56,142 nucleotides of DNA from a virus (lineage: Duplodnaviria; Caudoviricetes), in the IMG/VR virus record IMGVR_UViG_3300017910_000401, positions 1-56,142 of that record; one strand, given 5' to 3'. Position numbers and translations under genes: made by a program. Below are positions 3,042 to 52,538 of the stretch, one piece after another; position 1 is the stretch's first letter, and each line of letters opens with the position of its first letter. The notes below the pieces were generated by a model. It was given only the letters and a program-made list of their open reading frames with translations, did no database searches and was not told the origin of the DNA.

Positions 3042-3084
3042 AAAAAAAAAGGCGGTAGCTACCTGTAAAAGTAGCTACCGCCTT
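3042..3084 (-). terminator. Rho-independent terminator of the leftward early operon
   Basis: GGCGGTAGCTAC-8 nt loop-GTAGCTACCGCC followed by T9 on the minus strand, just after the stop at 3093. Confidence 0.9.
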
Positions 3085-4362: not shown

Positions 4363-4556
4363 GCTTCCTCCATGTTCGGATTATAAGCAACAATATCAAT
4401 CTTATATTTCAAAGTTTTTATTGTTTCCAAGTGGTATTTATTAAAAGTTTTTTGGTCAATTAACTTTGCGAATTTCTTTGCAGTGTTGCAAAAAGGATAG
4501 CAAAGGTCATTACCATAAACATTTTTATAGAATACCTTCATATTTAAATTATTCAT
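4359..4556 (-). CDS. Small hypothetical phage protein
   Basis: 65 aa, KNVYGNDLCYP motif, strong GGAGGT RBS. Confidence 0.75.
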   Translation of the reverse strand: MNNLNMKVFYKNVYGNDLCYPFCNTAKKFAKLIDQKTFNKYHLETIKTLKYKIDIVAYNPNMEEA

Positions 4557-4608
4557 AAGACCTCCATCTTATAAAAATTAGTTTAAAAAAGTTGGCTTGT
4601 AAGCCAAC

Positions 4609-4707
4609 ACCTAGACCAGAACAATCAGGTGAAAATTATTCGCTAGTGAATAATATTTTTTTATCTTGTTCTGGTTTCGATTGAATCTCACAATCTCCTC
4701 AGTAGGT
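4609..4707 (-). ncRNA. Hammerhead ribozyme HH-A (type I), predicted cut GUC between 4614 and 4613
   Basis: ACCUA-CUGAGGA-GAUUG(UGAGAUU)CAAUC-GAAA-CCAGAACAA...UUGUUCUGG-UC/UAGGU; complete core and three stems. Confidence 0.92.
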
Positions 4708-5343
4708 TTAAGTCTCTGTAAAAGTTATAGTTATACCATCACTTACAAGACCAGATACGTTTGCAAAAATACTCATAACAATTGTGTCAATTTCGTACTT
4801 TGCTTCGTAAAGTGTGTCGCATCTAAAATTTTTAGAAAAAGGCACAGCAGTTTCAAAATCATACCAAGCCATTTTGAAATTTGGATAAACGACATAATGT
4901 TTAAGATGATTATTTCTAGCAATAACAAAGTTTCGATAAAGATATTCTTTCCAATCTTTATTTTCTGATACTTTTGCTATTGCCATTTGATTACGAAGAA
5001 ACTCATAAGCTTCAGGAAAATCTTTATAAGCTTTTTGCACTTTGACTTTTGTCTTGTGCCAATCGCTTTCCTTTGGCTCTGCTTTCATTTTGTGATAAAA
5101 ATCTTTAAGACGTTTATTACACTTTTCAAAATCATCCATGAGCATAAGATATCTATGAGTTAGATTACCTTTTGCGATACAAACCTTATATTCAAAATCA
5201 AGTTTATTAAGAATATTTTTAATGGTATGTGACGTTGAATGATAACCGCTTTCATAGTAGCTTCGCATTGAATTAGGACAATTAGGATAACTGTCTAATT
5301 TTGTTTTGCTCATTTCTAAAGCATCTTTCAATAATTTTTCCAT
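4708..5343 (-). CDS. Hypothetical early protein
   Basis: 211 aa with GGAGGT RBS. Confidence 0.75.
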   Translation of the reverse strand: MEKLLKDALEMSKTKLDSYPNCPNSMRSYYESGYHSTSHTIKNILNKLDFEYKVCIAKGNLTHRYLMLMDDFEKCNKRLKDFYHKMKAEPKESDWHKTKVKVQKAYKDFPEAYEFLRNQMAIAKVSENKDWKEYLYRNFVIARNNHLKHYVVYPNFKMAWYDFETAVPFSKNFRCDTLYEAKYEIDTIVMSIFANVSGLVSDGITITFTET

Positions 5344-5370
5344 AAGACCTCCATCTTATAAAAGTTAATT

Positions 5371-5457
5371 AAACTGATTTCGGCTCTTTTGAGCCACCCT
5401 CCTAAAAGGGTACGTTTTCACGTTCATCAGGCAAAACACACATTTTGCTATCAGTTT
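5371..5457 (-). ncRNA. Hammerhead ribozyme HH-B (type III variant with extra hairpins), predicted cut AUA between 5449 and 5448
   Basis: AAACUGAUA/GCAAAA(UGUGUG)UUUUGC-CUGAUGA-[three hairpins]-GAAAUCAGUUU. Confidence 0.75.
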
Positions 5458-5500
5458 TTAAAATTAGACCTCCATACAGGCTCATAGAGGGCAAAACTAA

Positions 5501-5541
5501 TAGCAAGTGATATCTGAGTACCCCTCAAATATCACTCGCTA
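5501..5541 (-). other. 18-bp RNA hairpin after the VWA gene stop
   Basis: UAGCGAGUGAUAUUUGAG-GGGUA-CUCAGAUAUCACUUGCUA, with two G-U pairs on the minus strand. Confidence 0.7.
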
Positions 5542-5552
5542 ATAGAAAGTTT

Positions 5553-6893
5553 TTAGTCGTAGAATCTAGCAGTATCTACATAGACCACCTCGCCAAAGGC
5601 AAGACGTTCTGAATAACTGCTTTTTTCAGTACAACACCAAAACACAGGAACATCAGGCTCAACGTCTTCAGAAACGTCTCCCCAACCATCGGTAAAATAC
5701 ACTAAGGCTTGAACGTCTTCGGCATCATCAGTGTAGTCATTCAACAGATTAAATACAGGGTCAAACTCTGTACCGCCACCGCCACGAACTACTAACTCTA
5801 ATTCATCGCCTGAAGATAAATCATAGTAATCCCACCATTCCCCCTGTCCATTTTTACGAACAGTTGTGTCACAGTAGCAAACTCTGATTTTTTCAAGACC
5901 GCAGTCTTCCGCCATAGCTTGTATCTCAGTAGCAAATTTATTCAATTCGTATTGAGATACAGAACCTGAAGTATCGATTGCAACCGCTAACTCGCCACCT
6001 TGTGGAGACCTAGTTTTACTCGGCAAATTTAAACCTTGCCATGCAAACCTTTTATTCAGTCTCGACCATGAGTAATCGTTAGCAACAGAAGAACGTAAAA
6101 GGTCATTCAATTGTTCTTTCCAATCAATTGAAGTCTCTTTCAATTCTTCCATTCTGCCACCGCAAGACGAATTAGTACCGCTTCCAACAGCTACTTCTAG
6201 CTTGTCAGATAAGGCTACTGCTCTTTGAATCTCAGTTGAGATTTCTTGAATCTCAGCATCACTCAATGGCTTTCCTTCATCGTCAGTTGCATCCAACACC
6301 TCGCCAATAGTTGAAGGAATAGCATCTAAATCAATCGACTCAGATTCTTCGCCATCTTCGTCAGTTTCTTCATCAGAAATATTTCCTTCACTAGTGTCTG
6401 GTATTTCAGAATCTTGCGAATCATCCTCCATGTCCGCATTCTGATTTTGTTCCTTGACTTGCTCGATTGCTTCTTGCAGGTCATCTTCATTTTTAATTAA
6501 ATGTTGATAAACCTTTTCCGCAGACCAACCCTTGTATTTATGGTCAAGTAAACCGCCAAAAGGCAATTCAAAATTTAAATCCCAATACAAGTAAGCATTG
6601 ATAACGTAATCACAAGCAATATTCCATACTTTAGGATGACGTTTACCACGTCTTAGTGGATGTTCATAAACAACGTGCAATGCTTCGTGAACAAGTACAC
6701 CTCGCAATTCTGCTTCGGTTAATTTATCCACGAATGGCGGATAGTAAAAAATGTTTTTACCATCAGTCGCCATCGTATCGCACTTTGATTCTTCACATTC
6801 AACCAAGTCAAGATTAAGGAGCATACTAGCCATGCCAATATGCCCTTTCATCAATTTTGCTCTAGCCTTAATTATGGTTTCAAGAGTTTTCAT
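5553..6893 (-). CDS. DUF2201-type protein: HExxH metallopeptidase-like N-domain plus VWA domain
   Basis: TMATDG, LVHEALH, WNIACDYVIN, MIDAS motif DTSGS, GGGGTEF, YFTDG. The start is probably the ATG at 6893 (RBS GGAGGT upstream) rather than 6908. Confidence 0.88.
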   Translation of the reverse strand: MKTLETIIKARAKLMKGHIGMASMLLNLDLVECEESKCDTMATDGKNIFYYPPFVDKLTEAELRGVLVHEALHVVYEHPLRRGKRHPKVWNIACDYVINAYLYWDLNFELPFGGLLDHKYKGWSAEKVYQHLIKNEDDLQEAIEQVKEQNQNADMEDDSQDSEIPDTSEGNISDEETDEDGEESESIDLDAIPSTIGEVLDATDDEGKPLSDAEIQEISTEIQRAVALSDKLEVAVGSGTNSSCGGRMEELKETSIDWKEQLNDLLRSSVANDYSWSRLNKRFAWQGLNLPSKTRSPQGGELAVAIDTSGSVSQYELNKFATEIQAMAEDCGLEKIRVCYCDTTVRKNGQGEWWDYYDLSSGDELELVVRGGGGTEFDPVFNLLNDYTDDAEDVQALVYFTDGWGDVSEDVEPDVPVFWCCTEKSSYSERLAFGEVVYVDTARFYD

Positions 6894-7866
6894 CTTTCTT
6901 ACCTCCATAAATTTTGTCGAACAAATTGCCTTTCAATCCATCAATAGATTGTTCAAGACCTTCGGCAACCTGTTCACGTTTTTGCTTTCCTAAATCTGTT
7001 TCGTCTCTAAGAGAATCAACAGAATTTATTGTTGCAAGAACAGAACAAAGACTTTGATGAGCATCAGCAATATTTTTATTATTGCCTAGTACATCCTGAT
7101 TAATAGAAGGTAGCACTTCAACCGCTTGTCTCAATTTCTCGAAACTAGATTTGTTGAAGAATCCGCCCTTCTGCTTGTTGTCAGGGTCATACTCTTTGAG
7201 TTTAGTCGCAACGTGATTAACTTGTTCTAGTAAAGCATCAACAGTAATTGTCATTACGTTTTTGATGTTTTTGTTAGACCTGTTAATCGCATCCGCTTCT
7301 ATTCTCTGCCTTAACTTTTCTGAGACGTTAAGTCTAATATCGTTTCCGAAAGTAGGTACAGGAGTCATTTCAAATTGAAACAAAAACTTTTGTCTTAATT
7401 TGTCAAAATCAATGTAGTCACTTTCTCTGAAAGCATCGCCCAAGTTTCTCTTCGCCATTTCCATTTGTTTAGGATAGCTTCTGAGAAAGCCTTGAACTTC
7501 TTTATCCCAAACAAGAGTAGCTTGGTCTACTTCATACTGAAGTCGTTCAAGATTCGTGTTAGGGCAAAGTCGCCATTCCGATAAAACTTTTCCCTCGTCA
7601 TCAAGGGATGAAGAATCATCCCACGGCAAAGTTAAAGGTTTATAAAAGTCATTCCTAAACTTATCTAAAATTTGGCGAAACTCTTTATTGATATTTCGAC
7701 CAAAGATGTGTTTAGAAACACCTAACAATTTATCGTCTGATACTTTCGTATCTTCCGCTAAACCGCTTCTCAATTTCTTATCGACTTTAATGCCTGATGG
7801 ATGTCTTGCAGTAAGACGAACCAACATACAATTTTCCGATAAGGTATTTGTTAATTTTTTATCCAT
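6880..7866 (-). CDS. Helical partner of the AAA/VWA module (possibly DUF3150-like)
   Basis: 328 aa, TLPWDD...WRLCP motif; lies between the AAA and VWA genes. Confidence 0.55.
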   Translation of the reverse strand: MDKKLTNTLSENCMLVRLTARHPSGIKVDKKLRSGLAEDTKVSDDKLLGVSKHIFGRNINKEFRQILDKFRNDFYKPLTLPWDDSSSLDDEGKVLSEWRLCPNTNLERLQYEVDQATLVWDKEVQGFLRSYPKQMEMAKRNLGDAFRESDYIDFDKLRQKFLFQFEMTPVPTFGNDIRLNVSEKLRQRIEADAINRSNKNIKNVMTITVDALLEQVNHVATKLKEYDPDNKQKGGFFNKSSFEKLRQAVEVLPSINQDVLGNNKNIADAHQSLCSVLATINSVDSLRDETDLGKQKREQVAEGLEQSIDGLKGNLFDKIYGGKKDENS

Positions 7867-7896
7867 ATTAGAACCTCCATTCTGTTAGATAAAAGT

Positions 7897-7952
7897 TATC
7901 TGATTTCACAGTTTTCTGCTCGTCAGTTGGAATCACATTCCAATATCAGATA
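7897..7952 (-). ncRNA. Hammerhead ribozyme HH-C (compact type III), predicted cut AUA between 7944 and 7943
   Basis: UAUCUGAUA/UUGGAA(UGUGA)UUCCAA-CUGACGA-GCAG(AAAA)CUGU-GAAAUCAGAUA. Confidence 0.9.
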
Positions 7953-7958
7953 TTGAAG

Positions 7959-8013
7959 TGAGCAAGATGTAATTTTATTCACTAGCGAATAATATTTTTT
8001 TACATCTCGCCCA
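7959..8013 (-). other. Long RNA hairpin after the AAA gene stop, capped by the recurrent palindrome
   Basis: UGGGCGAGAUGUAA pairs with UUACAUCUUGCUCA (14 bp, two G-U pairs on the minus strand). Confidence 0.7.
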
Positions 8014-8027
8014 ATTCAGTTTTCAAC

Positions 8028-9077
8028 CTAGACTTCTAAGTCTTGATTCCTGATTTTAAAATCGGAATAAGTAGAAGTTTCTGCTAAGTCTGGAATTGCT
8101 CCAATCAAAGAACGAACATAGAAAATCGCAAATTCAGGAGTAGGTAATTTCTCAACATAGTTAAGACTATTTTGAAAATAATTAGCTACATTTGGATTAT
8201 CCATTTCCGATTTAAGAATCGAAACTAATGCACAAACTAGAGCATAAGATTTACCGCCCTCATCAATCATTTCTACGTCTTTGCCTTCACAAATATCTTG
8301 AACATTCGGCAAGTCATTTTTCAAAGACAAAAAGGTAAGAAATTCAATCGAAGCAGTCTCGCCAATATCCCCTTCACAAACTAGTTGCAAAATTTCTTTT
8401 GGCGGATTCGTTTTCAATGTATCAGAAAGACGAACCCAAGAACGTGGACTCGGCTGGGGAGTCGTAATTTTTGGGTCAAAGTCGCAAAGGTACTGAGGCT
8501 CATAACTAATGAATCCCAATACGTCAGGACTTACATCATTCTCAGTCGCCCAAGAAATCCAATCGTTAATGTTTTCATCTACATTCAACATTGTGCATCT
8601 GTCATTGACTTGCGTAGGAATTTTATTTGCTCCTGCTCTGTCAGTTGCCCTGTTTCCTGCACAAACAATTTTCCACCCATCAGGCAAAACGTACTCTCCG
8701 ATTTTTCTTTCATAGAGTAATTGTCCGCACACACACATGACCGAAGAATGAGCCTGAGCAAATTCATCAAAAAATAATATGCCCTCGCCACCAATTGGGA
8801 GATTACCTAAGAAGGCTCTCTTTTGTTGGTTATCTTCGTCTATGTAAGGCAAACCGCCTAAATCAACAGTCTCATAAAGTGACAGTCTAAAATCAATAAA
8901 TCCAAACTGTTTTTTAGTTGGATTGATTGAATTAACAATCTCTCTATCTTCTGCAAATTCTTCGGCTAGTTTCCTAACAATTGCACTTTTTCCAATCCCC
9001 GGTTTCCCTTGCAGGTAAGGGGTATTAGAACCCTTTAATATCGATTTCATCGATAATATAGCTTGACTCGGTTTCAT
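8028..9077 (-). CDS. MoxR/AAA_5-like AAA+ ATPase
   Basis: Walker A GKPGIGKS, Walker B LFFDE, AGNR, PSPRSW. Confidence 0.9.
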   Translation of the reverse strand: MKPSQAILSMKSILKGSNTPYLQGKPGIGKSAIVRKLAEEFAEDREIVNSINPTKKQFGFIDFRLSLYETVDLGGLPYIDEDNQQKRAFLGNLPIGGEGILFFDEFAQAHSSVMCVCGQLLYERKIGEYVLPDGWKIVCAGNRATDRAGANKIPTQVNDRCTMLNVDENINDWISWATENDVSPDVLGFISYEPQYLCDFDPKITTPQPSPRSWVRLSDTLKTNPPKEILQLVCEGDIGETASIEFLTFLSLKNDLPNVQDICEGKDVEMIDEGGKSYALVCALVSILKSEMDNPNVANYFQNSLNYVEKLPTPEFAIFYVRSLIGAIPDLAETSTYSDFKIRNQDLEV

Positions 9078-9130
9078 ATAAGACCTCCATCTTTTATACC
9101 AAGTTAGAATTCGTTAGCAGAATTGCTAAC

Positions 9131-9211
9131 ACCTAGAAGCAACCTTTTTACAGGCTAGACTTAAATCTATTTAATGCTTTTCGCTAGAGTTTCACTAGCA
9201 CGTCAGTAGGT
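9131..9211 (-). ncRNA. Hammerhead ribozyme HH-D (type I, A9U core variant), predicted cut UUC between 9136 and 9135
   Basis: ACCUA-CUGACGU-GCUAG(UGAAACU)CUAGC-GAAA-AGCA...UGCU-UC/UAGGU; overlaps the stop codon of the upstream ORF. Confidence 0.8.
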
Positions 9212-9625
9212 TTCTCTAAGAACTTCTTTTCCTAAAGTTAAATCGTAATGAATCTCCCTCGTTAGTTTAGGACTTTTAGTCTTGTCAATCCTAATCCAAT
9301 TATTAGATTCTTTGTCCTGATAAAGTCTAGGCTCAAAGTAAATATGAGTCTCGTTATCGTTCATTTGATATTTTTCAAATGAGGGAATCCAATCATCAGA
9401 TTCCATTCTCCAATCGATAAAATCATACCTAGTCATTACGTTGTCTTTTTTAATTAATTTAATTAAAGGCAAAATCTCTTTTACCAATTCAAGACTTTCA
9501 CTTGAAGAAATATCCTCAATTACGAACTCAGTTAATCCTTTAGGCTTCCAATAATCATTACCTTCCGCAGGATTTTCTACGTTGTAATTTGCAAATGTCT
9601 GAAAAGTTAATACTAATTTGCTCAT
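9203..9625 (-). CDS. Hypothetical early protein
   Basis: 140 aa, QTFANY...YWKPKG motif, GGAGG RBS. Confidence 0.75.
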   Translation of the reverse strand: MSKLVLTFQTFANYNVENPAEGNDYWKPKGLTEFVIEDISSSESLELVKEILPLIKLIKKDNVMTRYDFIDWRMESDDWIPSFEKYQMNDNETHIYFEPRLYQDKESNNWIRIDKTKSPKLTREIHYDLTLGKEVLRETY

Positions 9626-9680
9626 TTTTTTCTAACCCTCCATTAGTTAGTTATTAAAATAGTTGGCATTATTGCCAACC

Positions 9681-9743
9681 ACCTAGACCAACCCAAATTA
9701 ATTGAGTTGGTTTCGCCTGAATTTCACAGGCTCTTCAGTAGGT
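9681..9743 (-). ncRNA. Hammerhead ribozyme HH-E (canonical type I), predicted cut GUC between 9686 and 9685
   Basis: ACCUA-CUGAAGA-GCCUG(UGAAAUU)CAGGC-GAAA-CCAACUCAA(UUAAU)UUGGGUUGG-UC/UAGGU. Confidence 0.95.
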
Positions 9744-10049
9744 TTAGAATTGTTGAATAACATATCCTCCGCAATCAGTTTCTAAAACTGTGGTCACATC
9801 TTTTATGCTCTCCAATGTTGAATAAATTGTGCTTGTTCCATTGATTGAATAATCAGCAATCAATTCATCAACATTTTTATATTCCGCATAATCACAACAA
9901 ATGGCAATCACATCTAATTCTAAATTTTCCAATTCAGACAAATGCTCGTACAAAGCCTTTAACCCTTCTCTTGAAAAGTTGTTGGCATATTGTCCTGAGT
10001 TTCCAAATTCATTAATGAATTGATTTTCGTTTAAAGTTTTATATATCAT
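9744..10049 (-). CDS. Hypothetical early phage protein
   Basis: 101 aa, NFSREGLKALYE...ELDVIAICCDYAEY motif, GGAGG RBS. Confidence 0.75.
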   Translation of the reverse strand: MIYKTLNENQFINEFGNSGQYANNFSREGLKALYEHLSELENLELDVIAICCDYAEYKNVDELIADYSINGTSTIYSTLESIKDVTTVLETDCGGYVIQQF

Positions 10050-10093
10050 TTTCTATCCTCCACGATAGTTAGATAAGAGACTTAATTGTCTCT

Positions 10094-10159
10094 CCTCCTG
10101 AGTTTCTTGAATCCAATTAAGGATTCTCATTCAGCACGTTAATTCGTGGACTCTGGAGG
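10094..10159 (-). ncRNA. Hammerhead ribozyme HH-F (type III variant with kissing loops), predicted cut GUC between 10149 and 10148
   Basis: CCUCC-A-GAGUC/CACG(AAUUAA)CGUG-CUGAAUGA-GAAUCC(UUAAUU)GGAUUC-AA-GAAACUC-A-GGAGG. Confidence 0.8.
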
Positions 10160-43198: not shown

Positions 43199-45021
43199 TG
43201 AATTTAGTAGAATTATCTGAAGAATTAGAATTCATGCCAAAAGATGCTTTGATACAATTATCACAAAATCCTAATTCTAATTATCCACCTTATTTGGTTT
43301 TAGCTGAAATACAAAGGCGTACTCAAATGGAAAAAATGTATGCAGCAGCTAGACCTAAACCACAGAATACAGTAGCAGAAGAAGTAGTAACGGATTTTGC
43401 TATGTCTACTCCCAATGCAGGTATATCCATGATGGATGGTTCAGCTCCAACTGAAAGATTCTCCCCTAAGTCCAGCGATATACCTGCTCCAGTATTAATG
43501 CAAACTGCAGCTAGTGGTGGTCTGACTGCCTATGCTAATAAAGGAAAAACTGAAACCACTGGTTCTAAAATAAAAAACTTTTTGACTGCACCTATAAGAG
43601 CTATTTCAGAGTTAGGTAGACTACGATATGAAGCAGGTAGAGATATGTCAAATCAACTTAGAGAGAATGCTTCTATGAGAGCTGACATCAGAAATGACTT
43701 AATAACAAAGTCTTTGCCAGTTATAAAAGGAGAAAAAACCTTAGAAGAATTTAAAAATGAAATGAGAGAACTTTATAATAATGATTTTATTAAAGATGAT
43801 AAGGGTTATAGAAATTCAATTAAAAATTATTATTACAATTTTGAACAAAAATTTCTACCTAGGTTTCAGAAAGAGATAGCAGAAACAGGTAAAATGCCAA
43901 AAGATGTTATAAAGCATTACGATGATTATGAAAATTTTAGAAATAGTAAGCAATACCTAAACAAATTTGATACAGGATATGAAAGACCTGACTTAACATT
44001 ACCATCAAAAGCTGGTGGTGGTATAACAGGTTATCAAAATAGAGGTCAAACTATGATAGAACAGTCTCTATCAAATCCTCAAGAAAGAGGATTTTTTGGT
44101 AAAACTTTTGACTACATAAAAGAAAACCCAGGTACTACAGCATTAAATGTAGCTAGTGCAGGTCTGATGTTTGTACCAGGTATAGGATTAGTATCTTTAG
44201 GTTTGAGAGGACTGCAAGCTGCAAGAGCATTAAACTATGCACAAGGAGCAAAAAAAGCTTACGATGTTGCAAAAAGAGGAACTATAGCTACAGGTAAAGC
44301 ATTAAATCCTAAAGTATTATATTCAAGACCTAATCCTATTTTTAGTAATTTACAACAAGGCACAAGAAGAGTGCTTCAAAAAGATGGAACATATAAAGTT
44401 ATAGATACTGCTACAGGTAAAGCGATAAAACCTAGAGTATTTTCTATGAAAAGAGCAGCACCTACTTCAATAGCTGGAGCAGCAGGTTTGCAAGCAATAA
44501 ATTATATGAATCAAGATGATAAAGTTATTAATCAAATGCCACCTCCTGAAAGAGAATTGTCTGCTGAAGATTTAGAAATTTTACGTTTACAAAATGAAGC
44601 TGCTATGGCAGAAACAGAAACTAAACCTAAAGGATTTGATGACCAAGCTTTAAATTTAATTAGTTTAGGTGGCACAATTATGGGTGCTCGTAATATGTCT
44701 GAATTAGGTCAAGGCTTAACTAGTTTTGCAACTGCTAAACAAGCAGCTAAAGGTGATGAAGCACAACAAGCTTATTACGCAGCTAGTGCAGCCAAAGCTC
44801 AGGCAGAAGTTGAAAATATGCCACTCGATAGAGTTATTTCTAGTATTGAAGCAATAACTGAGCAGCAAGAAGCAGCTTTAGAAAATAATGATACAGAAAC
44901 AGCAACAGCACTTGGATTACAACTACAAATTCTAAATCAAAGAGCTTTAGAATTACAAGGCATAGATGTGCAAACACAAGCTAGTATAGACAAAAACTTA
45001 ATTGCATCTTTTGGAACTTAA
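43198..45021 (+). CDS. Internal virion protein
   Basis: PPYLVLAEIQRR; helical; position in the ejection module. Confidence 0.55.
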   Translation: MNLVELSEELEFMPKDALIQLSQNPNSNYPPYLVLAEIQRRTQMEKMYAAARPKPQNTVAEEVVTDFAMSTPNAGISMMDGSAPTERFSPKSSDIPAPVLMQTAASGGLTAYANKGKTETTGSKIKNFLTAPIRAISELGRLRYEAGRDMSNQLRENASMRADIRNDLITKSLPVIKGEKTLEEFKNEMRELYNNDFIKDDKGYRNSIKNYYYNFEQKFLPRFQKEIAETGKMPKDVIKHYDDYENFRNSKQYLNKFDTGYERPDLTLPSKAGGGITGYQNRGQTMIEQSLSNPQERGFFGKTFDYIKENPGTTALNVASAGLMFVPGIGLVSLGLRGLQAARALNYAQGAKKAYDVAKRGTIATGKALNPKVLYSRPNPIFSNLQQGTRRVLQKDGTYKVIDTATGKAIKPRVFSMKRAAPTSIAGAAGLQAINYMNQDDKVINQMPPPERELSAEDLEILRLQNEAAMAETETKPKGFDDQALNLISLGGTIMGARNMSELGQGLTSFATAKQAAKGDEAQQAYYAASAAKAQAEVENMPLDRVISSIEAITEQQEAALENNDTETATALGLQLQILNQRALELQGIDVQTQASIDKNLIASFGT

Positions 45022-48000
45022 TGGAAAAAATAAATTTACCTGATGGACAGGTAATAAATATACCAGACAATATAGACCCAATAAAAAGGTCTGAATTAGC
45101 TGGTGCTATAAAAAGACAATATGACATAGATATAGATAAAGTATCTATTTTAGATAGAGTTGTAGATGCTCCTAAATCAGTAGCTAGAGGTACTATAAGC
45201 ACAGTAGCTAATGTACCATTGGGTTTGGCATCACTATTTGATATAGGCAACGATAGTGAAGTTGTAAAAGGTTTGCAAGGTTTTCGTGATTATCTTAGAG
45301 AAGATTCTATATTTGCTTCTGACCCATCATTAAGAAATAAATATTCTACTAAACTAGCTGAAGGTTTTGGTTCATTTGGACCATTTTTGGGTGCAGGTTT
45401 AGCAGGTCGTGCTTTAGCTAGGAGAGGTGTAGTAAGTCCTGCAGTAGGTACATTCGGACTACCAGCTGCATTAGCTGTACCAACAGGTATTTCTGAACAA
45501 GTAGACCGATTAGAAATAGCTAGAGATATGGGCGAAGAAGCTAATGCTGGTCAGGAAATATTATCTGAACTTATTGGTGGTGCTATTGGTTTATCTGAAA
45601 TTGCACCAATAGCTGCTTTTCTTAAAAGAGTACCTAAGTCTGCTGCTCGTAATCCTGAAATAAATGCTCGTATAACACAAATAGCTAAAGACTTTACAAC
45701 AGGTTTTGCATTTGAAGGTGCACAAGAATCTATTGCAAGTTTAACTCAAGATTTAGTTGCTAGAGGTTTATACAGTGATACTTTGCCAATTGGAGAAAGT
45801 TTCTTTGATGAGTTAACTATAGGGGGTATTGTTGGTGGTACTGCAAAAGCTGTAATAAATAGTCTTGGTCGTAAACAAGGAATTAAAAGTGAATATGCAG
45901 AAGAAAAAATAAGGCGTGAACAAGAAAATAAAAAAGATTTATTACGAGCTAAAAAATTCCAACAAGCACAAGAACAAGGAACACTTACAGAAGTGCAAGA
46001 TGTACCACAAGTTGTTAAGCCAGAGCTTGTTGTACCTGAAGCAACTCTACCAGAACCTGATTTAACAGTTGTTAGTTTGCCTAACAACACCTTTTCTATT
46101 GTTGATAACAACAATACGACACAACCAATAGTTGAAACTTTTACTAGTGAAGCTGATGCTTTATCTAAAAAAGAAGAGTTACTAACTGACTTTAATAATC
46201 AACGTCTTACCCAAGAATTAAACAAACAATTATATTTACAAGGCAATATAAATAGTGCGACTGCTTTTGAAATAGGGCAATCGTTACTTGACCCTATAGC
46301 AACTACAGTAACGCCTAATGATATTATTGCTTTTAAAACTAAAATATCCGACAAAGCTAAACAAAGTTTTTTAGAAAACAATACAAAACCTCTAACTCTT
46401 GAGGAGGCTAAAAATAATTTAACTAAAAAAGAATTCAATGATTTAGCTAGTTCTTTAGCTAGAGCACAGTTAAAAGCTAATGAAAAAAATGGACAACCAT
46501 CTATAACTGCAGGTAAAGACACCATAAACACTACTCCCAAATATATTAAAGAATTAGCTGAATCTAAAAATATAGATAACTTTAATCCTAATTCACCAGC
46601 TATAGCTCATGCACTAAAAATTTATACAGGCTCTAATGATTTAAAAGGCATGAGTAAAGGTCAAAAAGATTTATTAGTTGCTAGATTACACGCCCTTCCT
46701 AAATTTAATCAAAAACAAGAATTTCCTGATTTTAGACCTAAAGAATATTCTGCTAAAGATATGGCAGATTTTATTTCTAAAATAGACAAAGCTTCATTTA
46801 CTTTAAAAGATGTTGAAAATAATTTTGATGGCGATAAAGGTAAAGCTGCAATGTTTATCAGTCAATTACAAAAAAGTGGCAGAGCAGAGTTTTTAAAAGA
46901 AGAAGGTGCTTATCGAATAAAAGATAATTTTGAGTTTGAAATTGCAAGAAGAGCAGAAGCTTTTGACCAGACACCAGAAGAGTTTGGTGCATCCCTTAGA
47001 GAGCAAGGCACTTTATCTGAAGATGTAATAGCTAAATTAGTAGAAGAAGAAACTGTAAGACAAGAAAAAGTTTTACCTCCAGAAGAAATAGAACCTAAAT
47101 TAATTAACTTTGCTGAAGCTATTGAAGAAGGTAGAACTAATAAGTTTGCTAAAGAAATAAGAAAACAATTAGATAAGTTTGGTCTATCAGATACAGGTGT
47201 GGTTGTAAGTGATGATATTTTATCAACCACAACTCTTAGACAAACTACAGATGGTGTAGCTTTTGACCCTAGAGAAGTTAGAGAAGAAAGAATTGAAGGA
47301 GAATACGATAGAAATACAGACATAATCTTTTTATCTTTGAATGCTGTAAATCCTGATGGTAATGCGACAGATTTTGAAATAGAACAAAGATTAAGAAACA
47401 TAGTTAATCACGAAGTAATTCATGCTTTACGAGCAAAAGATTTATTAACAGAACCAGAATATAACTATTTACGAAAATTAGTTAAACAAAGAAAAGTGCC
47501 TAAAGATTTTGATGAAAATTATGCTAATAGAACTTTTTATGACCGAGCAGTTGATATAAATAGAGGAACAATAGAAGCTCGTAGACAAGCAGGTTTAAAT
47601 ATAAGTGATGAAAGAGCAGAAGAACTCTACATTGAAGAAGCTATAGCAGAAATGTATCGTGCTAAAGATATTGGACCAACCATGCCAAACAAAGTGGATG
47701 GCATCTTTAATAAATTTATAGAGTTTTTTAAAGGCATAGGACAAGCCATGCGTACATCAGGTTATAAAAATGTAGCTAATGTATTTGCTGAAATAGAACA
47801 AGGTCGTGTTGGTCGTAGAGCTAGAGGTGAATTAAGAACCACTAGAGAGCTTGATAGAGGAGCAGCCATAAGTCAGTTACCTCCAGATTTGCAAGCAGAA
47901 AAAGACCGCAGAGATAGAGCTGCTGCTGAAGCACAATTAAAACCAGATGAAATAGAAAGAGGTGCAGTTATAAAAACTGAATTATCACCACAAGAACTTT

Positions 48001-51000
48001 CTAGATTAGAGCCTGTTGCACCTACAAGACCAACACCTCCACCTCCGCCTCCACCACCCCCACCTGTAGTTGAAGAACCAACTATTGAGCCAGAAGTAAA
48101 ACCTGAAGTTCCAGATGCTAGACCTCCTGTAAAACCTGAAGAGCCAGCTATAGAAACTACATCTATTCCTAATACTATTTATGATTCTACAAAAAGAACG
48201 CTAGAAGAAAAAATTATAGAAGAGGCTTATATTGCACATGGATTAGCTGCTGCAGGAGTAATTACTGTAGAACAAGCTGACAGAATAGGTAGAGGTCAAG
48301 GTGTAAGGACTAAAGGCGATACTATAAAAATGTTGAAATGGTTTACTAAAAATTCTCCTAGTGAAGATTATAGAATTTTAGCTACTAAAGCTTTAGAAAC
48401 ATTAAACAAGTTAAAAAAATATGGAGTTACACTACCTTTTTCTATAAGTTCAGTTCAAGCTCAAGGTCGAGTTGCATTTCAATATAGTCTGAATTTAACA
48501 GACTCTATTAGTAATTTTGAACTTGGAACGAAGGACATGAAAATGACTATAAATTCCAAAACTGGTTTAGATTTTGAAACTATTTTGCATGAAACTTTAC
48601 ATTCTTCTTCTCTCTTACAATTAAAACTATTTGAAGTTTTAGAAAAACAAAATCTTGCTAGAAAGAGAAAAGGTTCTACAAAACCATCAGAAATAAGTAA
48701 AGTTCCAGAAAAGATACTTTCTACTAAAACTATAAAAGCATTTAGAAATTTAAATGAACAAAGACAAAGAGTTTTAAATTATATTGAAAATCAAAAAGTT
48801 GTTCTTCTTCAAGATTATAAAAATTTTGAAAGAAACAAAAAAACAGGCGACCGATATTATCGTAAAGATTTAGATAATAATCCTATTTTAAAACAATTGG
48901 CATTTGCTATAGCTGAAAAAGAAATGACTGGTCGTTCAACTTCATTACAGCAATGGGATAGAGTATATGTAGATTATTATCTTAAAGGTAGGCAAGCAAC
49001 AAGAAGTAGAGAAAATGATTCTTCTGAATTTATTACATTTGGTTTTACAAATAGACCATTTCAAAATTTTTTAGAAAACATACCATATGATGATAAAGGT
49101 AAAAAAACTGTTTGGAATAAATTTGTTGAAGCCATTAGAGATATTTTAAATTTACCAGCTAAATTAGATACAGAATTTGCAGCTTTTTTAAATAATGCAG
49201 CAGATATATTTTACAACCCTGAAGTAACACAAGAAAAATTAAGAGCACCTCCTACTAGTATTGATTCAAGACGTGCAGAGATAGAAGAAAAAATATTTGC
49301 TGCTGAAGATATGATTTATCGTTTAGAACGAGAAGAATATTTAGAGGGAGATGTAATGACTGTTGGTAGTTTGAATAGATTACAAGGCAGGATTAGACAA
49401 CAAAAAAGAAATTTAGCTTTTTTTAAAAATGAATTAGCTAATCTATCAGAAGAAATAGTAGAGCCTGAACAATTACCTTTATTTTCTAAAGGAGTTAGAT
49501 ATAACAAAAACAAAAATTCATCAGAAAGTAGACAGCTACAAGAGGCTGTTACAAAGGCTGAAGAACAGGCAAAGTCACAACCTAGAGGGGGTATACCTAG
49601 ATACAATACAAATGCCTCTGATATAGCTCTAAAAACAGCTATAGATTTTGAAAATGACCCTACTATGTCTGTACCTGATGACATACCTAATTGGTCAAAA
49701 CCAACACTAGATGGTGTAGACAACGATATTAGAGCAGGTATTAATCGTACAGGTGGTCAAAAAGCTCCAGAAAAATCTTTTGGTGCTAGATTATTAGAAA
49801 CATTAAAAGACCCTGTAACTAATATTGGTTTTTATTTTAGAGATTTTCGTCAAAATTATGTTGATAAATTAGATAAAACAGATAAAAAAATATTAAAAGG
49901 TATTCAAAAAAATGAACAAGTAAGAGCTTTTAACAATACTGCAGACACAGCTACTATGGCAGCTTTACGTCTGGCTGATAGAGCTAGAGGTTTATTTCAA
50001 GGTTTACTTACAACTGGCACCATTTCAGACAAAATAGATGGTGTAGCTGCTTTAGCAAATGTAGTTAAAAGTGAAGATGGTGGACTAATACAAATACTAG
50101 CACCACTTTATAGTAGACCAGAAGTAGACCAAGAATCTATATTTAAATTTTATGCTAGTTTAAAACGTACCGAACAATTTCAGAAAGATGGTCGTGTGGT
50201 TAAATCTCCTATTAAAGAAGAAGATTTAGCTTTAATAAAAAAAATAGAAGTTCAATATCCTGATGTAAAAAATGTTTTTGAAGCTTATCAACGTTGGAAT
50301 AATACTTTAATTACCTTTGCAGAAAATAAAGGATTGTTAAGTAAATTTAAATCTAACAATAAAATAATAGAAGAGTTAGAAAAAAAAGGTATTGACCAAG
50401 CTACTTTAGATAGATTAGCTCAACTATCAAAAGAAAATGGTGGCAGAAGCGTTCAAGAAATAAGAGAATTTGCTGTACAAAATGATATAGATATCAGAGG
50501 ACAAGCAGACCTTTGGCGAGAACATTCTAGTTATTATCCTTTTTATCGTGACATGGTAGATGATACAGGTATTACTGCTCCTACTGTAGCTGGTGGGTCT
50601 TTGCCTAATAATCCATTAAGTATTTCTTTAGAAGGTTCAGAAGACCCTTTAAATATAAATCCTTTAGAAGCTATATCTAGAAACTCTTTATCAATACTTA
50701 CTGCATCATTAAAAAATGATGGATTAGCAAAACTTATAAGAGACTTAGAACTTATGGGAGAAGCTAAAGAAGTAACACCAAAAGAGTCTGCTAAATTAAA
50801 TACTATATTTGTTTTTGATGAAGGTATTAAAAGACACTACGAAGTAGATGTAGAGTTGGTAAACGCTTTGCAATCTGTAGGTGGTACACAAAGAGGCATG
50901 ATAGAAAAAGTATTAGCTATGCCTGCAGGATTTTTACGAGAAACTGTTACTAGAGACCCAGGTTTCGTTGTGGTAAACATTTTAAGAGATACCTTTTCTA

Positions 51001-52538
51001 CTATGGTTACTTCAGGTGCAGACTTCGTGCCTGTTATAGATTCGTTTAAAAATCTAGTAGGCGACATGGAAAACCTTAAAAAGTTTGGTGTGCTAGGTGG
51101 TTATGACTTTTCTAATGATGAAGGTAGTGTCAAAGAATATATCACTCGAACTATGCGTAGAGAGGGATTAACACCAGATAACGGAATGTCGGCACAAAAA
51201 CTATTTTTTAAACTTTGGGATGGTTTGGGTGAATTAACTACAAGGTCAGATGGTGCAACAAGACAAGCAGTCTATGATGGAGTTTATAAAAAATTAATTA
51301 AAGAAGGTTATAACGAAGCACAGGCACAATCAGAAGCAGCTTATCAAGCTCTAGAAATAATTAACTTTGGTCGTAGAGGATTAAATCCTACGTTTAAAAT
51401 AATTACTGCAGCAATACCTTTTTTCAATGCCAGAATACAAGGTTTAGATATTATTTATCGTGCAGGTAGTGGTAAATATTCTGCTGTAGAAAAACTGCAA
51501 CAAGGTGAAACTTTAAAAGATGTACAAGGTCGTATCTTAAAAAATGTTGCATTAAAATCTGGAGTTTTATCGGCTATCACTCTTATATATTATTTATTAG
51601 TACATGATAGTGATGAATATAAAAATCTTAAACGAGAAGTAAGAGATGATAATTGGGTAGTTCCAGTAGGATTTAATCATGCAGTAAAAATACCAATACC
51701 TTTTGAAGTAGGATTTTTATTTAAAGTAGTTCCTGAAAGATTTTTTGATATGACTTTAGGAGATGAAGCTTTTACTAGAAGTTCAGTAAACGAAGCAGGA
51801 ACCTCTATATCTAGAGGTTTAGGTACTTCTCTTGCAATACCTTTCTTTGATGCTGGGGGTGTACAAGCATTAAAACCAATAGTAGAAGCATTAATAAATA
51901 AAAACTCTTTTACCAAACAAGACATTGTTCCTTACTATCAACTACAAAAAGAACCTGCATTGCAATTTAGAGAAGGTACAAGCCAACTAGCAAAAGAAAT
52001 AGGAGAACAACTAAACATTTCTCCTGCTAAAGTAGAGCACGTTTTTAGAGGGTACACAGGCACTCTAGGAGGCTATGTGGTGGCTTTGTCAGACACAATC
52101 ACTAGATTGGTCACAGGTGAACCTTTAATGCCTAAAAATGCTAGTTTCTTGCAGAATACTCCACTTAGAAGATTGCTTTTAGATTATGATAAATCTGGTG
52201 GTTTGCAACAACAATTTTATGAATTACGAGGAGAGGTGGATAGAGCAGTAGCAACTATCAACTCATTAAAAAAAGAAAAAAGATTTGATGAACTATCAGC
52301 TTATAGGACTAACAGAAAAGGTGTATTGGATATCAAAGGTCAAATTAGAGCCTTAGAAAAATATCTAGCAAACTTTAGAGAAAGACGTAATAGACTATTA
52401 CTAAATGAGAATATATCCGTTGCAGAGAAATCTGAACGACTCAGACAAATGGAAATAGAACGTGATAAACGACTAGCTTTTGTACCAGAGTTAAGAAAGA
52501 GAGCCAATCTCCCTGTTATTAATATGAACCCTTTCTAG
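45021..52538 (+). CDS. Giant internal virion / large polyvalent protein with a C-terminal LPD38-like domain
   Basis: 2505 aa; two HExxH motifs (NHEVIHAL, LHETLHS); INFGRRG, IPFFNARIQG, KIPIPFEVG, ISPAKVEHVFRGYTGTLG. Confidence 0.75.
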   Translation: MEKINLPDGQVINIPDNIDPIKRSELAGAIKRQYDIDIDKVSILDRVVDAPKSVARGTISTVANVPLGLASLFDIGNDSEVVKGLQGFRDYLREDSIFASDPSLRNKYSTKLAEGFGSFGPFLGAGLAGRALARRGVVSPAVGTFGLPAALAVPTGISEQVDRLEIARDMGEEANAGQEILSELIGGAIGLSEIAPIAAFLKRVPKSAARNPEINARITQIAKDFTTGFAFEGAQESIASLTQDLVARGLYSDTLPIGESFFDELTIGGIVGGTAKAVINSLGRKQGIKSEYAEEKIRREQENKKDLLRAKKFQQAQEQGTLTEVQDVPQVVKPELVVPEATLPEPDLTVVSLPNNTFSIVDNNNTTQPIVETFTSEADALSKKEELLTDFNNQRLTQELNKQLYLQGNINSATAFEIGQSLLDPIATTVTPNDIIAFKTKISDKAKQSFLENNTKPLTLEEAKNNLTKKEFNDLASSLARAQLKANEKNGQPSITAGKDTINTTPKYIKELAESKNIDNFNPNSPAIAHALKIYTGSNDLKGMSKGQKDLLVARLHALPKFNQKQEFPDFRPKEYSAKDMADFISKIDKASFTLKDVENNFDGDKGKAAMFISQLQKSGRAEFLKEEGAYRIKDNFEFEIARRAEAFDQTPEEFGASLREQGTLSEDVIAKLVEEETVRQEKVLPPEEIEPKLINFAEAIEEGRTNKFAKEIRKQLDKFGLSDTGVVVSDDILSTTTLRQTTDGVAFDPREVREERIEGEYDRNTDIIFLSLNAVNPDGNATDFEIEQRLRNIVNHEVIHALRAKDLLTEPEYNYLRKLVKQRKVPKDFDENYANRTFYDRAVDINRGTIEARRQAGLNISDERAEELYIEEAIAEMYRAKDIGPTMPNKVDGIFNKFIEFFKGIGQAMRTSGYKNVANVFAEIEQGRVGRRARGELRTTRELDRGAAISQLPPDLQAEKDRRDRAAAEAQLKPDEIERGAVIKTELSPQELSRLEPVAPTRPTPPPPPPPPPPVVEEPTIEPEVKPEVPDARPPVKPEEPAIETTSIPNTIYDSTKRTLEEKIIEEAYIAHGLAAAGVITVEQADRIGRGQGVRTKGDTIKMLKWFTKNSPSEDYRILATKALETLNKLKKYGVTLPFSISSVQAQGRVAFQYSLNLTDSISNFELGTKDMKMTINSKTGLDFETILHETLHSSSLLQLKLFEVLEKQNLARKRKGSTKPSEISKVPEKILSTKTIKAFRNLNEQRQRVLNYIENQKVVLLQDYKNFERNKKTGDRYYRKDLDNNPILKQLAFAIAEKEMTGRSTSLQQWDRVYVDYYLKGRQATRSRENDSSEFITFGFTNRPFQNFLENIPYDDKGKKTVWNKFVEAIRDILNLPAKLDTEFAAFLNNAADIFYNPEVTQEKLRAPPTSIDSRRAEIEEKIFAAEDMIYRLEREEYLEGDVMTVGSLNRLQGRIRQQKRNLAFFKNELANLSEEIVEPEQLPLFSKGVRYNKNKNSSESRQLQEAVTKAEEQAKSQPRGGIPRYNTNASDIALKTAIDFENDPTMSVPDDIPNWSKPTLDGVDNDIRAGINRTGGQKAPEKSFGARLLETLKDPVTNIGFYFRDFRQNYVDKLDKTDKKILKGIQKNEQVRAFNNTADTATMAALRLADRARGLFQGLLTTGTISDKIDGVAALANVVKSEDGGLIQILAPLYSRPEVDQESIFKFYASLKRTEQFQKDGRVVKSPIKEEDLALIKKIEVQYPDVKNVFEAYQRWNNTLITFAENKGLLSKFKSNNKIIEELEKKGIDQATLDRLAQLSKENGGRSVQEIREFAVQNDIDIRGQADLWREHSSYYPFYRDMVDDTGITAPTVAGGSLPNNPLSISLEGSEDPLNINPLEAISRNSLSILTASLKNDGLAKLIRDLELMGEAKEVTPKESAKLNTIFVFDEGIKRHYEVDVELVNALQSVGGTQRGMIEKVLAMPAGFLRETVTRDPGFVVVNILRDTFSTMVTSGADFVPVIDSFKNLVGDMENLKKFGVLGGYDFSNDEGSVKEYITRTMRREGLTPDNGMSAQKLFFKLWDGLGELTTRSDGATRQAVYDGVYKKLIKEGYNEAQAQSEAAYQALEIINFGRRGLNPTFKIITAAIPFFNARIQGLDIIYRAGSGKYSAVEKLQQGETLKDVQGRILKNVALKSGVLSAITLIYYLLVHDSDEYKNLKREVRDDNWVVPVGFNHAVKIPIPFEVGFLFKVVPERFFDMTLGDEAFTRSSVNEAGTSISRGLGTSLAIPFFDAGGVQALKPIVEALINKNSFTKQDIVPYYQLQKEPALQFREGTSQLAKEIGEQLNISPAKVEHVFRGYTGTLGGYVVALSDTITRLVTGEPLMPKNASFLQNTPLRRLLLDYDKSGGLQQQFYELRGEVDRAVATINSLKKEKRFDELSAYRTNRKGVLDIKGQIRALEKYLANFRERRNRLLLNENISVAEKSERLRQMEIERDKRLAFVPELRKRANLPVINMNPF

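Follow-up and report, generated by a model that had tools for sequence, protein, structure and literature searches.

What do hammerhead ribozymes do when several of them stand one after another between the genes of a phage? The function of such clusters has been an open question since 2011, as put in Perreault 2011 (PMC3088659) and in PMC6765202, and it is raised again by the DNA analysed here, an entire IMG/VR virus record of 56,142 b (IMGVR_UViG_3300017910_000401; completeness estimate 95%), which we call the window. The window is the genome of a marine tailed phage of about 56 kb, known from a metagenome, and genes for the large terminase, portal, major head protein and primase/helicase are present. 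A block on its minus strand (4609-9743) carries five hammerhead motifs between its genes. An earlier sequence-only reading of the same DNA had noted that neighbouring ribozymes of one type share their arms, and had proposed that the RNA pieces cut out between them could close into circles or be re-joined in new orders. The five motifs, in the order in which the strand is read, are the following.

9681..9743, minus strand: HH-E, a type I hammerhead with stem I ACCUA/UAGGU, core CUGAAGA and triplet GUC; predicted cut between 9686 and 9685.
9131..9211, minus strand: HH-D, a type I hammerhead with a branched stem III, a U at core position 9, stem I ACCUA/UAGGU, core CUGACGU and triplet UUC; predicted cut between 9136 and 9135.
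7897..7952, minus strand: HH-C, a type III hammerhead with arms UAUCUGAU/AUCAGAUA and triplet AUA; predicted cut between 7944 and 7943.
5371..5457, minus strand: HH-B, a type III hammerhead with arms AAACUGAU/AUCAGUUU and triplet AUA; predicted cut between 5449 and 5448.
5396..5423, minus strand: 28-nt two-hairpin insert between A9 and stem II of HH-B.
4609..4707, minus strand: HH-A, a type I hammerhead with stem I ACCUA/UAGGU and triplet GUC; predicted cut between 4614 and 4613.

Judged by their sequence these are genuine hammerhead motifs, and the positions given by the earlier reading were confirmed by reading of the minus strand and by two descriptor scans. All five place CUGANG and GAAA between three helices, with the U9 of HH-D and the insert of HH-B as exceptions. 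The A15.1-U16.1 pair is present in each of them together with the cleavage triplets listed above, and in each the minimum free energy (MFE) fold is a three-helix junction. The z-scores of the folds were -4.16 for HH-E, -0.91 for HH-D, -2.86 for HH-C (in which stem II is closed by a G-U pair), -5.40 for HH-B and -3.22 for HH-A. The other matches of the descriptor scan in the window were three weak sites with 4-bp helices, and a scan of the window for type II hammerheads found none. Rfam gave no match in the window at gathering thresholds. HH-E reached 35.5 bits with the RAGATH-1 hammerhead (RF03152), below its gathering score of 56.3, and HH-D, HH-C, HH-B and HH-A had no Rfam hammerhead match even at E up to 10.

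Independent support for the motifs was obtained from relatives, which were gathered through the MoxR-like ATPase gene of the block (the best 80 of 206 loci, 588,938 b) and are here called the family. A loose descriptor gave 254 matches on the gene strand of the 80 loci and 4 on the opposite strand. With stricter descriptors the counts were 120 to 0 for type I and 107 to 0 for type III, and it is this strand asymmetry that supports the motifs independently. Across 363 loci (2,979,140 b) 433 type I matches lay on the better strand of the contig and 0 on the other, among the matches listed; the same scope applies below to all counts over 262 unique type I sites, over genomes with several type I copies and over pairs of their ribozymes. 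The places of the ribozymes are kept across the relatives: just upstream of the ATPase, about 60-85 nt past the ATPase stop, and after the gene for a protein with a VWA-like domain (the VWA gene). Many pair types occurred at each helix position among 160 unique type I sequences, for which the descriptor itself demanded pairing. With more than 200 ribozymes in 80 loci, conserved positions, two architectures, end hairpins and cassette junctions, the family forms a dense comparative set.

Comparison of the relatives placed the ribozymes at mosaic junctions, and on these alignments they are recombination joints between cassettes. In 82 of 108 pairs of loci with ATPases at least 95% identical, the sequences were unrelated over the 150 nt 5' of the proximal type I ribozyme, with identity at the level of shuffles. 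The downstream sequence was at least 80% identical in all 82 of these pairs, and the ribozyme itself was at least 85% identical in 52 and less than 75% identical in 22. Up to six different upstream sequences were found within each of nine ATPase clades.

Alignment of the five closest relatives located junctions at or inside the ribozyme arms at three sites. At the HH-D site, homology within the clade of the window begins at the ribozyme, and locus L009 has a different ribozyme there. The interior of HH-C is replaced in L007 and L008, with the junctions within the arms. At the HH-E site the window and L009 have about 55 nt in common (UC, UAGGU, the hairpin and the Shine-Dalgarno (SD) sequence) between flanks that are unrelated on both sides, and in the DNA of L009 an HH-D-like body is joined to the HH-E flank. 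The proposed re-joining of units in new orders was seen in L009 as DNA mosaicism between genomes, but not as joining of RNA. Since this recombinant exists as DNA, a contig matching a back-junction could not separate an RNA circle from a DNA recombinant. The alleles of stems II and III also reassort: there were four four-gamete quartets, and one stem III allele occurred with five stem II alleles and with both arm states.

At HH-B, a 151-nt metatranscriptome contig matched 5459-5500 and continued beyond 5500 with 103 nt of unrelated sequence. It probably comes from a relative with a different neighbour beside HH-B.

The genes and hairpins among which the ribozymes lie are given here in the same order.

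9661..9680, minus strand: 8-bp hairpin directly 3' of the HH-E 3' arm, then a Shine-Dalgarno-like GGAGG; predicted 5' end structure of the released message.
9203..9625, minus strand: 140-aa cassette open reading frame (ORF) that belongs to no Pfam or PHROG family and stops at a TGA within the HH-D CUGA.
9113..9130, minus strand: 7-bp hairpin directly 3' of the HH-D 3' arm, upstream of the ATPase ribosome-binding site.
8028..9077, minus strand: MoxR-like AAA ATPase (phrog_1297, 2.9e-73), first gene of a conserved module.
7954..8018, minus strand: long hairpin between the ATPase stop and HH-C (MFE -23.9 kcal/mol, z -4.48 or -5.48).
6880..7866, minus strand: ORF of 328 aa with no family, the "partner gene".
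5553..6908, minus strand: the VWA gene, a protein with DUF2201_N metallopeptidase-like and VWA-like domains (4e-39, 4.4e-16).
5469..5545, minus strand: two hairpins between the VWA gene stop and HH-B (MFE -38.9 kcal/mol for 5552-5458).
4708..5343, minus strand: ORF of 211 aa with no family, its stop abutting HH-A.
4591..4608, minus strand: 7-bp hairpin directly 3' of HH-A, then UUUUUU, terminator-like.

Each type I arm in the window begins at or over the stop codon of the gene upstream (TAA 9746-9744, TAA 4710-4708 and TGA 9205-9203, the last in the core), and HH-E begins immediately past the TAA of ORF 9744-10049. In the family a TAA was found immediately 5' of the type I arm at 60 of 90 sites, and an SD-like motif at most 70 nt 3' of the ribozyme at 86 of 90. 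The 3' arm of all three window copies is followed directly by a hairpin of 7-8 bp and then by GGAGG. The hairpin at 9113..9130 is kept in the five closest relatives, in which the sequence upstream of HH-D is unrelated. At type III sites the 80 nt 5' of the arms were strongly structured in 56 of 60 unique family cases, as compared to 22 of 76 for type I. Stem I was exactly 5 bp long at 219 of the 262 unique type I sites. The base before the 5' arm was A at 232 of them and the base after the 3' arm was A or G at 215, and with these flanking bases an extension of stem I is impossible.

We regard it as probable, with real room for doubt, that the hammerheads are natural insulators and processing sites between exchangeable cassettes and yield linear messages. 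Processing of long transcripts has been proposed for clustered phage hammerheads in Perreault 2011 (PMC3088659) and PMC6765202. The motifs, their strand bias and positions, the end hairpins and the mosaic junctions are directly established. From these we infer that the block 4609-9743 is transcribed leftward as a long polycistronic RNA and that the five hammerheads cut it in vivo, between genes and co-transcriptionally. At a type I site the upstream message would end in the folded ribozyme, bearing a 2',3'-cyclic phosphate, and the downstream message would begin with a 5'-OH, with a hairpin directly after it and the ribosome-binding site next. After a type III cut the ribozyme would stay at the 5' end of the downstream message, and a separate strong hairpin just before the cut would form the 3' end of the upstream one. 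The hairpins at 7954-8018 and 5469-5545 would be such 3' end structures, of the ATPase and VWA-gene messages respectively. A stem I of 5 bp would favour fast release of the products.

With structured ends on every linear message, the sites would uncouple the stability and translation of each gene from its neighbours, a role that would be both stabilising and insulating. Fixed structured 5' and 3' ends for each gene would suit a region in which neighbours are frequently exchanged. If this is true, phages have reached the design principle of the synthetic insulator RiboJ, which makes acquired genes plug-and-play, and the ribozymes also mark, and perhaps promote, modular recombination.

The shared arms, from which the idea of circles had started, were found largely as described. 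Stem I is identical (ACCUA/UAGGU) in all three type I copies, HH-E, HH-D and HH-A. The arms said to be common to HH-C and HH-B agree in the five core-proximal pairs, CUGAU/AUCAG, and in the A at the cleavage site, but the outer three of the 8 bp differ. Sharing was not lost in related genomes, as would have been expected had recent duplication been its only source: matching arms were present in 18 of 23 multi-ribozyme family genomes. Viral contigs were searched in three scans for the motif of the subfamily, a 5-bp stem II with loop UGARAY, and 43 genomes had at least two different type I copies. All arms were common in 18 family genomes and none in 5; in the 20 genomes outside the family they were common in all pairs in 4, in some pairs in 6 and in none in 10. 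This leaves 15 of the 43 with no common arms. A role of the arms as mimics of SD and anti-SD sequences was considered and rejected, as other lineages have unrelated arms.

Inside the family the type I arms are nearly invariant (RCCWA/UWGGU) beside variable stems II and III. In 71 of 72 family rows all type I copies have one state, A-U or U-A, at the pair second from the core, a state that changed five times along the ATPase tree. Examined for concerted change of the arms, the family offers two independent contrasts (sign test p 0.5), and with just two of them descent alone could explain the uniformity. Mismatched neighbours were also found among the closest relatives, with ATPases 99-100% identical: L009 has GCCUA/UAGGU beside AUCAA/UUGGU, L008 has a CUGU-C type III beside a CUGAU-A type III, and L084 has AUCAA/UUGAU beside ACCAU/AUGGU. 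Per genome, sharing of stem I was above that of stem II in 26 cases, below it in 4 and equal in 13 (8, 4 and 8 outside the family). The tendency of paralogues to keep the same stem I thus appears real but not universal, and it is statistically weak with the family counted as one lineage.

Recombination at ribozymes, with chimeras functional only when their arms match, would hold the arms uniform without joining at the RNA level. As far as these comparisons go, shared descent together with DNA recombination at the ribozymes accounts for the arms no less well than joining does. Identical arms would then be a lineage trait, inherited and reshuffled with the ribozymes, rather than a means of forming circles, and chimeras whose arms do not match would probably be purged.

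The geometry on which the circle proposal was built is sound. The 550-nt piece 9685..9136 has UAGGU at its start and, at its end, ACCUA followed by the core, stems II and III and UUC; together the two ends would rebuild a whole type I hammerhead. The 2495-nt piece 7943..5449, said to start with the HH-C core and to end in CUGAUA, does so, and its ends could pair again over 5 bp of stem III, out of 8 arm pairs, so that the fit is exact for the first piece and partial for the second. PMC6765202 backs both re-ligation by hammerheads and the circularisation of viroid and satellite units, often by host ligases, and the ligation chemistry and ribozyme-flanked circles are described as established in viroids, satellites and retrozymes (PMC6765202, PMC5680766). 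Matching arms could let excised ends re-pair, and the hammerhead or a host ligase of the RtcB type could join them to circular, exonuclease-resistant mRNAs or to "spliced" units. In favour of this are the matching arms, present in 18 of 23 genomes of the family and, for at least some pairs, in 10 of the 20 others, as well as the 26 genomes in which paralogues share stem I above stem II.

We nevertheless hold such joining to be very unlikely in this block, and the anatomy, as read from the sequence, leans to linear products. The idea itself is not new and is already in print for clustered phage hammerheads in Perreault 2011 (PMC3088659), where spliced or circular products were sought and, according to the text, neither was detected (data not shown there). 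Stem I is kept to 5 bp, and the two duplexes contribute only -3.8 kcal/mol (ACCUA/UAGGU) and -3.1 kcal/mol (CUGAU/AUCAG). The predicted end-to-end pairing was about 1.5% for the 550-nt piece and about 9% for the 2495-nt piece, with tertiary contacts ignored, and in the predicted fold the UAGGU end of the 550-nt piece is taken up by its own 5' hairpin (9661-9680). The upstream product of a type III cut ends in just a short arm and would, as a linear message, need a dedicated hairpin at this end, whereas the upstream product of a type I cut ends in the folded ribozyme; the hairpins before type III cuts (56 of 60) suit a linear 3' end and not a circle. A search of the phage found no RtcB or Rnl2-type ligase gene, and the search for T4 Rnl1 was uninformative, as its control had no match. 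The mismatched neighbours in L009 (type I), L008 (type III) and L084, the multi-ribozyme genomes with no common arms, the two contrasts inside the family and the excess of just 8 over 4 genomes outside it also speak against joining.

A stronger form of the proposal treats stem I as a genome-wide address code, by which all cut ends are mutually compatible and are re-joined by the ribozyme or by host RtcB. It would yield mRNAs that are circular and can be translated, or transcripts that have lost cassettes by splicing or carry them in a new order, and would explain why paralogues keep identical 5-bp arms despite drifting stems II and III and why arms differ between lineages. We give it only a slight chance. 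The uniform arms offer an experimental handle to separate the linear-processing model from the circular or re-joining one. Two marine metatranscriptomes (5-6% of the words) gave seven contigs of 151-194 nt over 4500-10100, all inside ORFs and with no joints or ends, a result that speaks neither for nor against cleavage or circles. The portions of the literature covered on natural circular mRNAs from phage ribozymes and on RAGATH-1 contained nothing on matched arms or on ribozymes at recombination junctions.

Several observations weigh against insulation and linear processing as we propose it. A hairpin of at least 5 bp directly after the 3' arm was present at 44 of 90 family type I sites, that is, at just about half. 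The metatranscriptome contigs are few and short, and neither cleavage nor polycistronic transcription nor the end of a message can be seen in them. Recurrent compensatory changes could account for part of the four-gamete signal of recombination inside ribozymes. Within genomes, stem I is also shared more often than stems II and III: among 109 non-identical pairs, 71 were compatible in stem I, 24 in stem II and 22 in stem III, and between clusters (8,337 pairs) compatibility was least for stem I, 0.7% as compared to 7.8% for stem II and 1.8% for stem III. Plain descent is insufficient for this pattern, and a need for matching arms at the RNA level would explain it. The preferential uniformity of stem I among paralogues is the unexplained residue of our account. 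Finally, two of the five ribozymes are irregular. In HH-D a U replaces the conserved A9 and can pair with G12 in the MFE fold, and its z-score of -0.91 does not set this fold apart from shuffled sequences; in HH-B the 28-nt insert lies in the joint between core and stem II. Either or both may for these reasons be slow or regulated.

The uniform arms could also reflect a purely structural constraint, in which a stem I of 5 bp makes a sequence-specific tertiary contact with the conserved loop II UGARAYN and neither cross-talk nor recombination plays a part. Both the loop and the length of 5 bp have been kept in very different lineages of phage, the family arms are almost invariant beside variable stems II and III, and an A precedes the 5' arm at 232 of 262 sites, all of which fit such a contact. 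The same loop II, however, occurs elsewhere with a very different stem I, and at least 40 different 3' arms were found. The cross-compatibility of 0.7% between lineages means that no universal stem I sequence is required, and the second pair is uniform in its A-U or U-A state within family rows rather than mixed. We consider a purely structural constraint of this kind improbable.

The irregularities of HH-D and HH-B bear on another alternative, that some of the five ribozymes are relics or regulated switches and that the block is processed partly or conditionally. Besides the core CUGACGU of HH-D with its low z-score and the insert of HH-B at the A9/G10.1 joint, this reading could draw on the L009 copy of the HH-D subtype, which also has a C-U mismatch at 15.2-16.2, and on Perreault 2011 (PMC3088659), where core variants were found to be slow and regulated cleavage in phages is suggested. 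Against it, the U9 subtype occurs in L007, L008 and L010 as well as in L069/72/73, and is thus kept in at least two distant clades, that of the window and that of L069/72/73, with compensatory changes in the branched stem III. The two-hairpin insert, for its part, was found again at two sites, in four versions that covary. Retention of the one and covariation of the other argue for function, and we find loss or switching unlikely.

The HH-B insert is absent from close relatives, the L010 orthologue among them. An optional two-hairpin module between A9 and stem II was also observed in type III ribozymes of L018, L019, L025, L029, L047, L066, L069 and L084; it consists of a hairpin with a GNRA-type tetraloop and a variable hairpin, in the four covarying versions and two genomic sites just mentioned. 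A second kind of insert was seen in type I ribozymes (ACCUA/UAGGU) just past the ATPase gene, in L060:3326-3590, L063:2000-2265, L065:3065-3270, L071, L081:3116-3320 and L082. Here stem III carries a conserved insert, with a total stem III of 146-305 nt and blocks common between loci, and the insert may be a structured RNA in its own right, housed within the ribozyme. The stem II and loop motif was also found in bacterial and archaeal assemblies (L364-L483), among them Legionella, Nitrosopumilales and other Thaumarchaeota, Clostridia and Paenibacillus. In that scan of cellular genomes the descriptor found type I ribozymes in 42 of 120 loci and two copies in 6; the arms were common in 2 of the 6, and there stem II was identical too.

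The surroundings of the block were also considered with respect to its transcription. A consensus scan found 18 promoter-like sites as compared to 31.9 expected from shuffles, and also a strong terminator at 3084-3049. The scarcity of promoter-like sites and the terminator are compatible with a single long transcript, without proving it. At 3049-3084 a strong hairpin of 14-16 bp with T runs on either side is present on both strands and looks like a bidirectional terminator ending the leftward block; a weak L20_leader match is due to this hairpin. HH-A would trim just a short tail if the hairpin at 4591-4608 on the minus strand terminates. The cassette ORFs are small and mostly orphan, with 7 of 10 lacking a Pfam family. 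A DNA search of 4500-10100 against 50,697 phage records gave no match, and the relatives found in a protein search with the ATPase were all below 60% identity and came from N4-like and other phages. The structural region contains an ORF of 2505 aa (45021-52538, plus strand).

Clustered phage hammerheads are already known, and the closest precedent is Perreault 2011 (PMC3088659). There too several hammerheads of mixed type lie between single genes or short blocks of phage genes of variable identity, long-transcript processing is proposed and circular or spliced products are considered. The present type I ribozymes differ in that they belong to a subfamily with a 5-bp stem I and genome-uniform arms, found in a marine metagenomic phage, and in that the sites coincide with recombination junctions, which were not found reported in the main-text parts compared. 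The nearest Rfam family is RAGATH-1 (RF03152), a type I hammerhead in which stem I likewise has 5 bp, stem II is short and an accessory hairpin is present; the alignment of HH-E covers all 77 positions of the model. The accessory hairpin of the model, however, is 5' of the ribozyme, and here the hairpin is 3'.

Viroids, satellites and retrozymes resemble the block in that a unit between two like ribozymes ends in complementary halves, with 5'-OH and 2',3'-cyclic phosphate ends that a ligase can join (PMC6765202, PMC5680766). In these sources the units are described as a single non-coding element, replicating or retrotransposing, that is repeated in tandem. The units of the block, in contrast, are cassettes of a DNA phage that code for different proteins and would have just 5 bp in common.

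RiboJ, a synthetic insulator, combines the sTRSV hammerhead with a 23-nt hairpin (PMC8794103). The phage sites differ from it in being natural and in lying inside an operon and not after a promoter, the adjacent hairpin is found at about half of the family type I sites, and insulation by them would follow from the arrangement. The order of parts in RiboJ, as given in PMC8794103, is nevertheless that of all three type I sites of the window: a hammerhead, an immediate hairpin and then the ribosome-binding site, by which the upstream context is removed and every downstream gene would receive the same 5' end.

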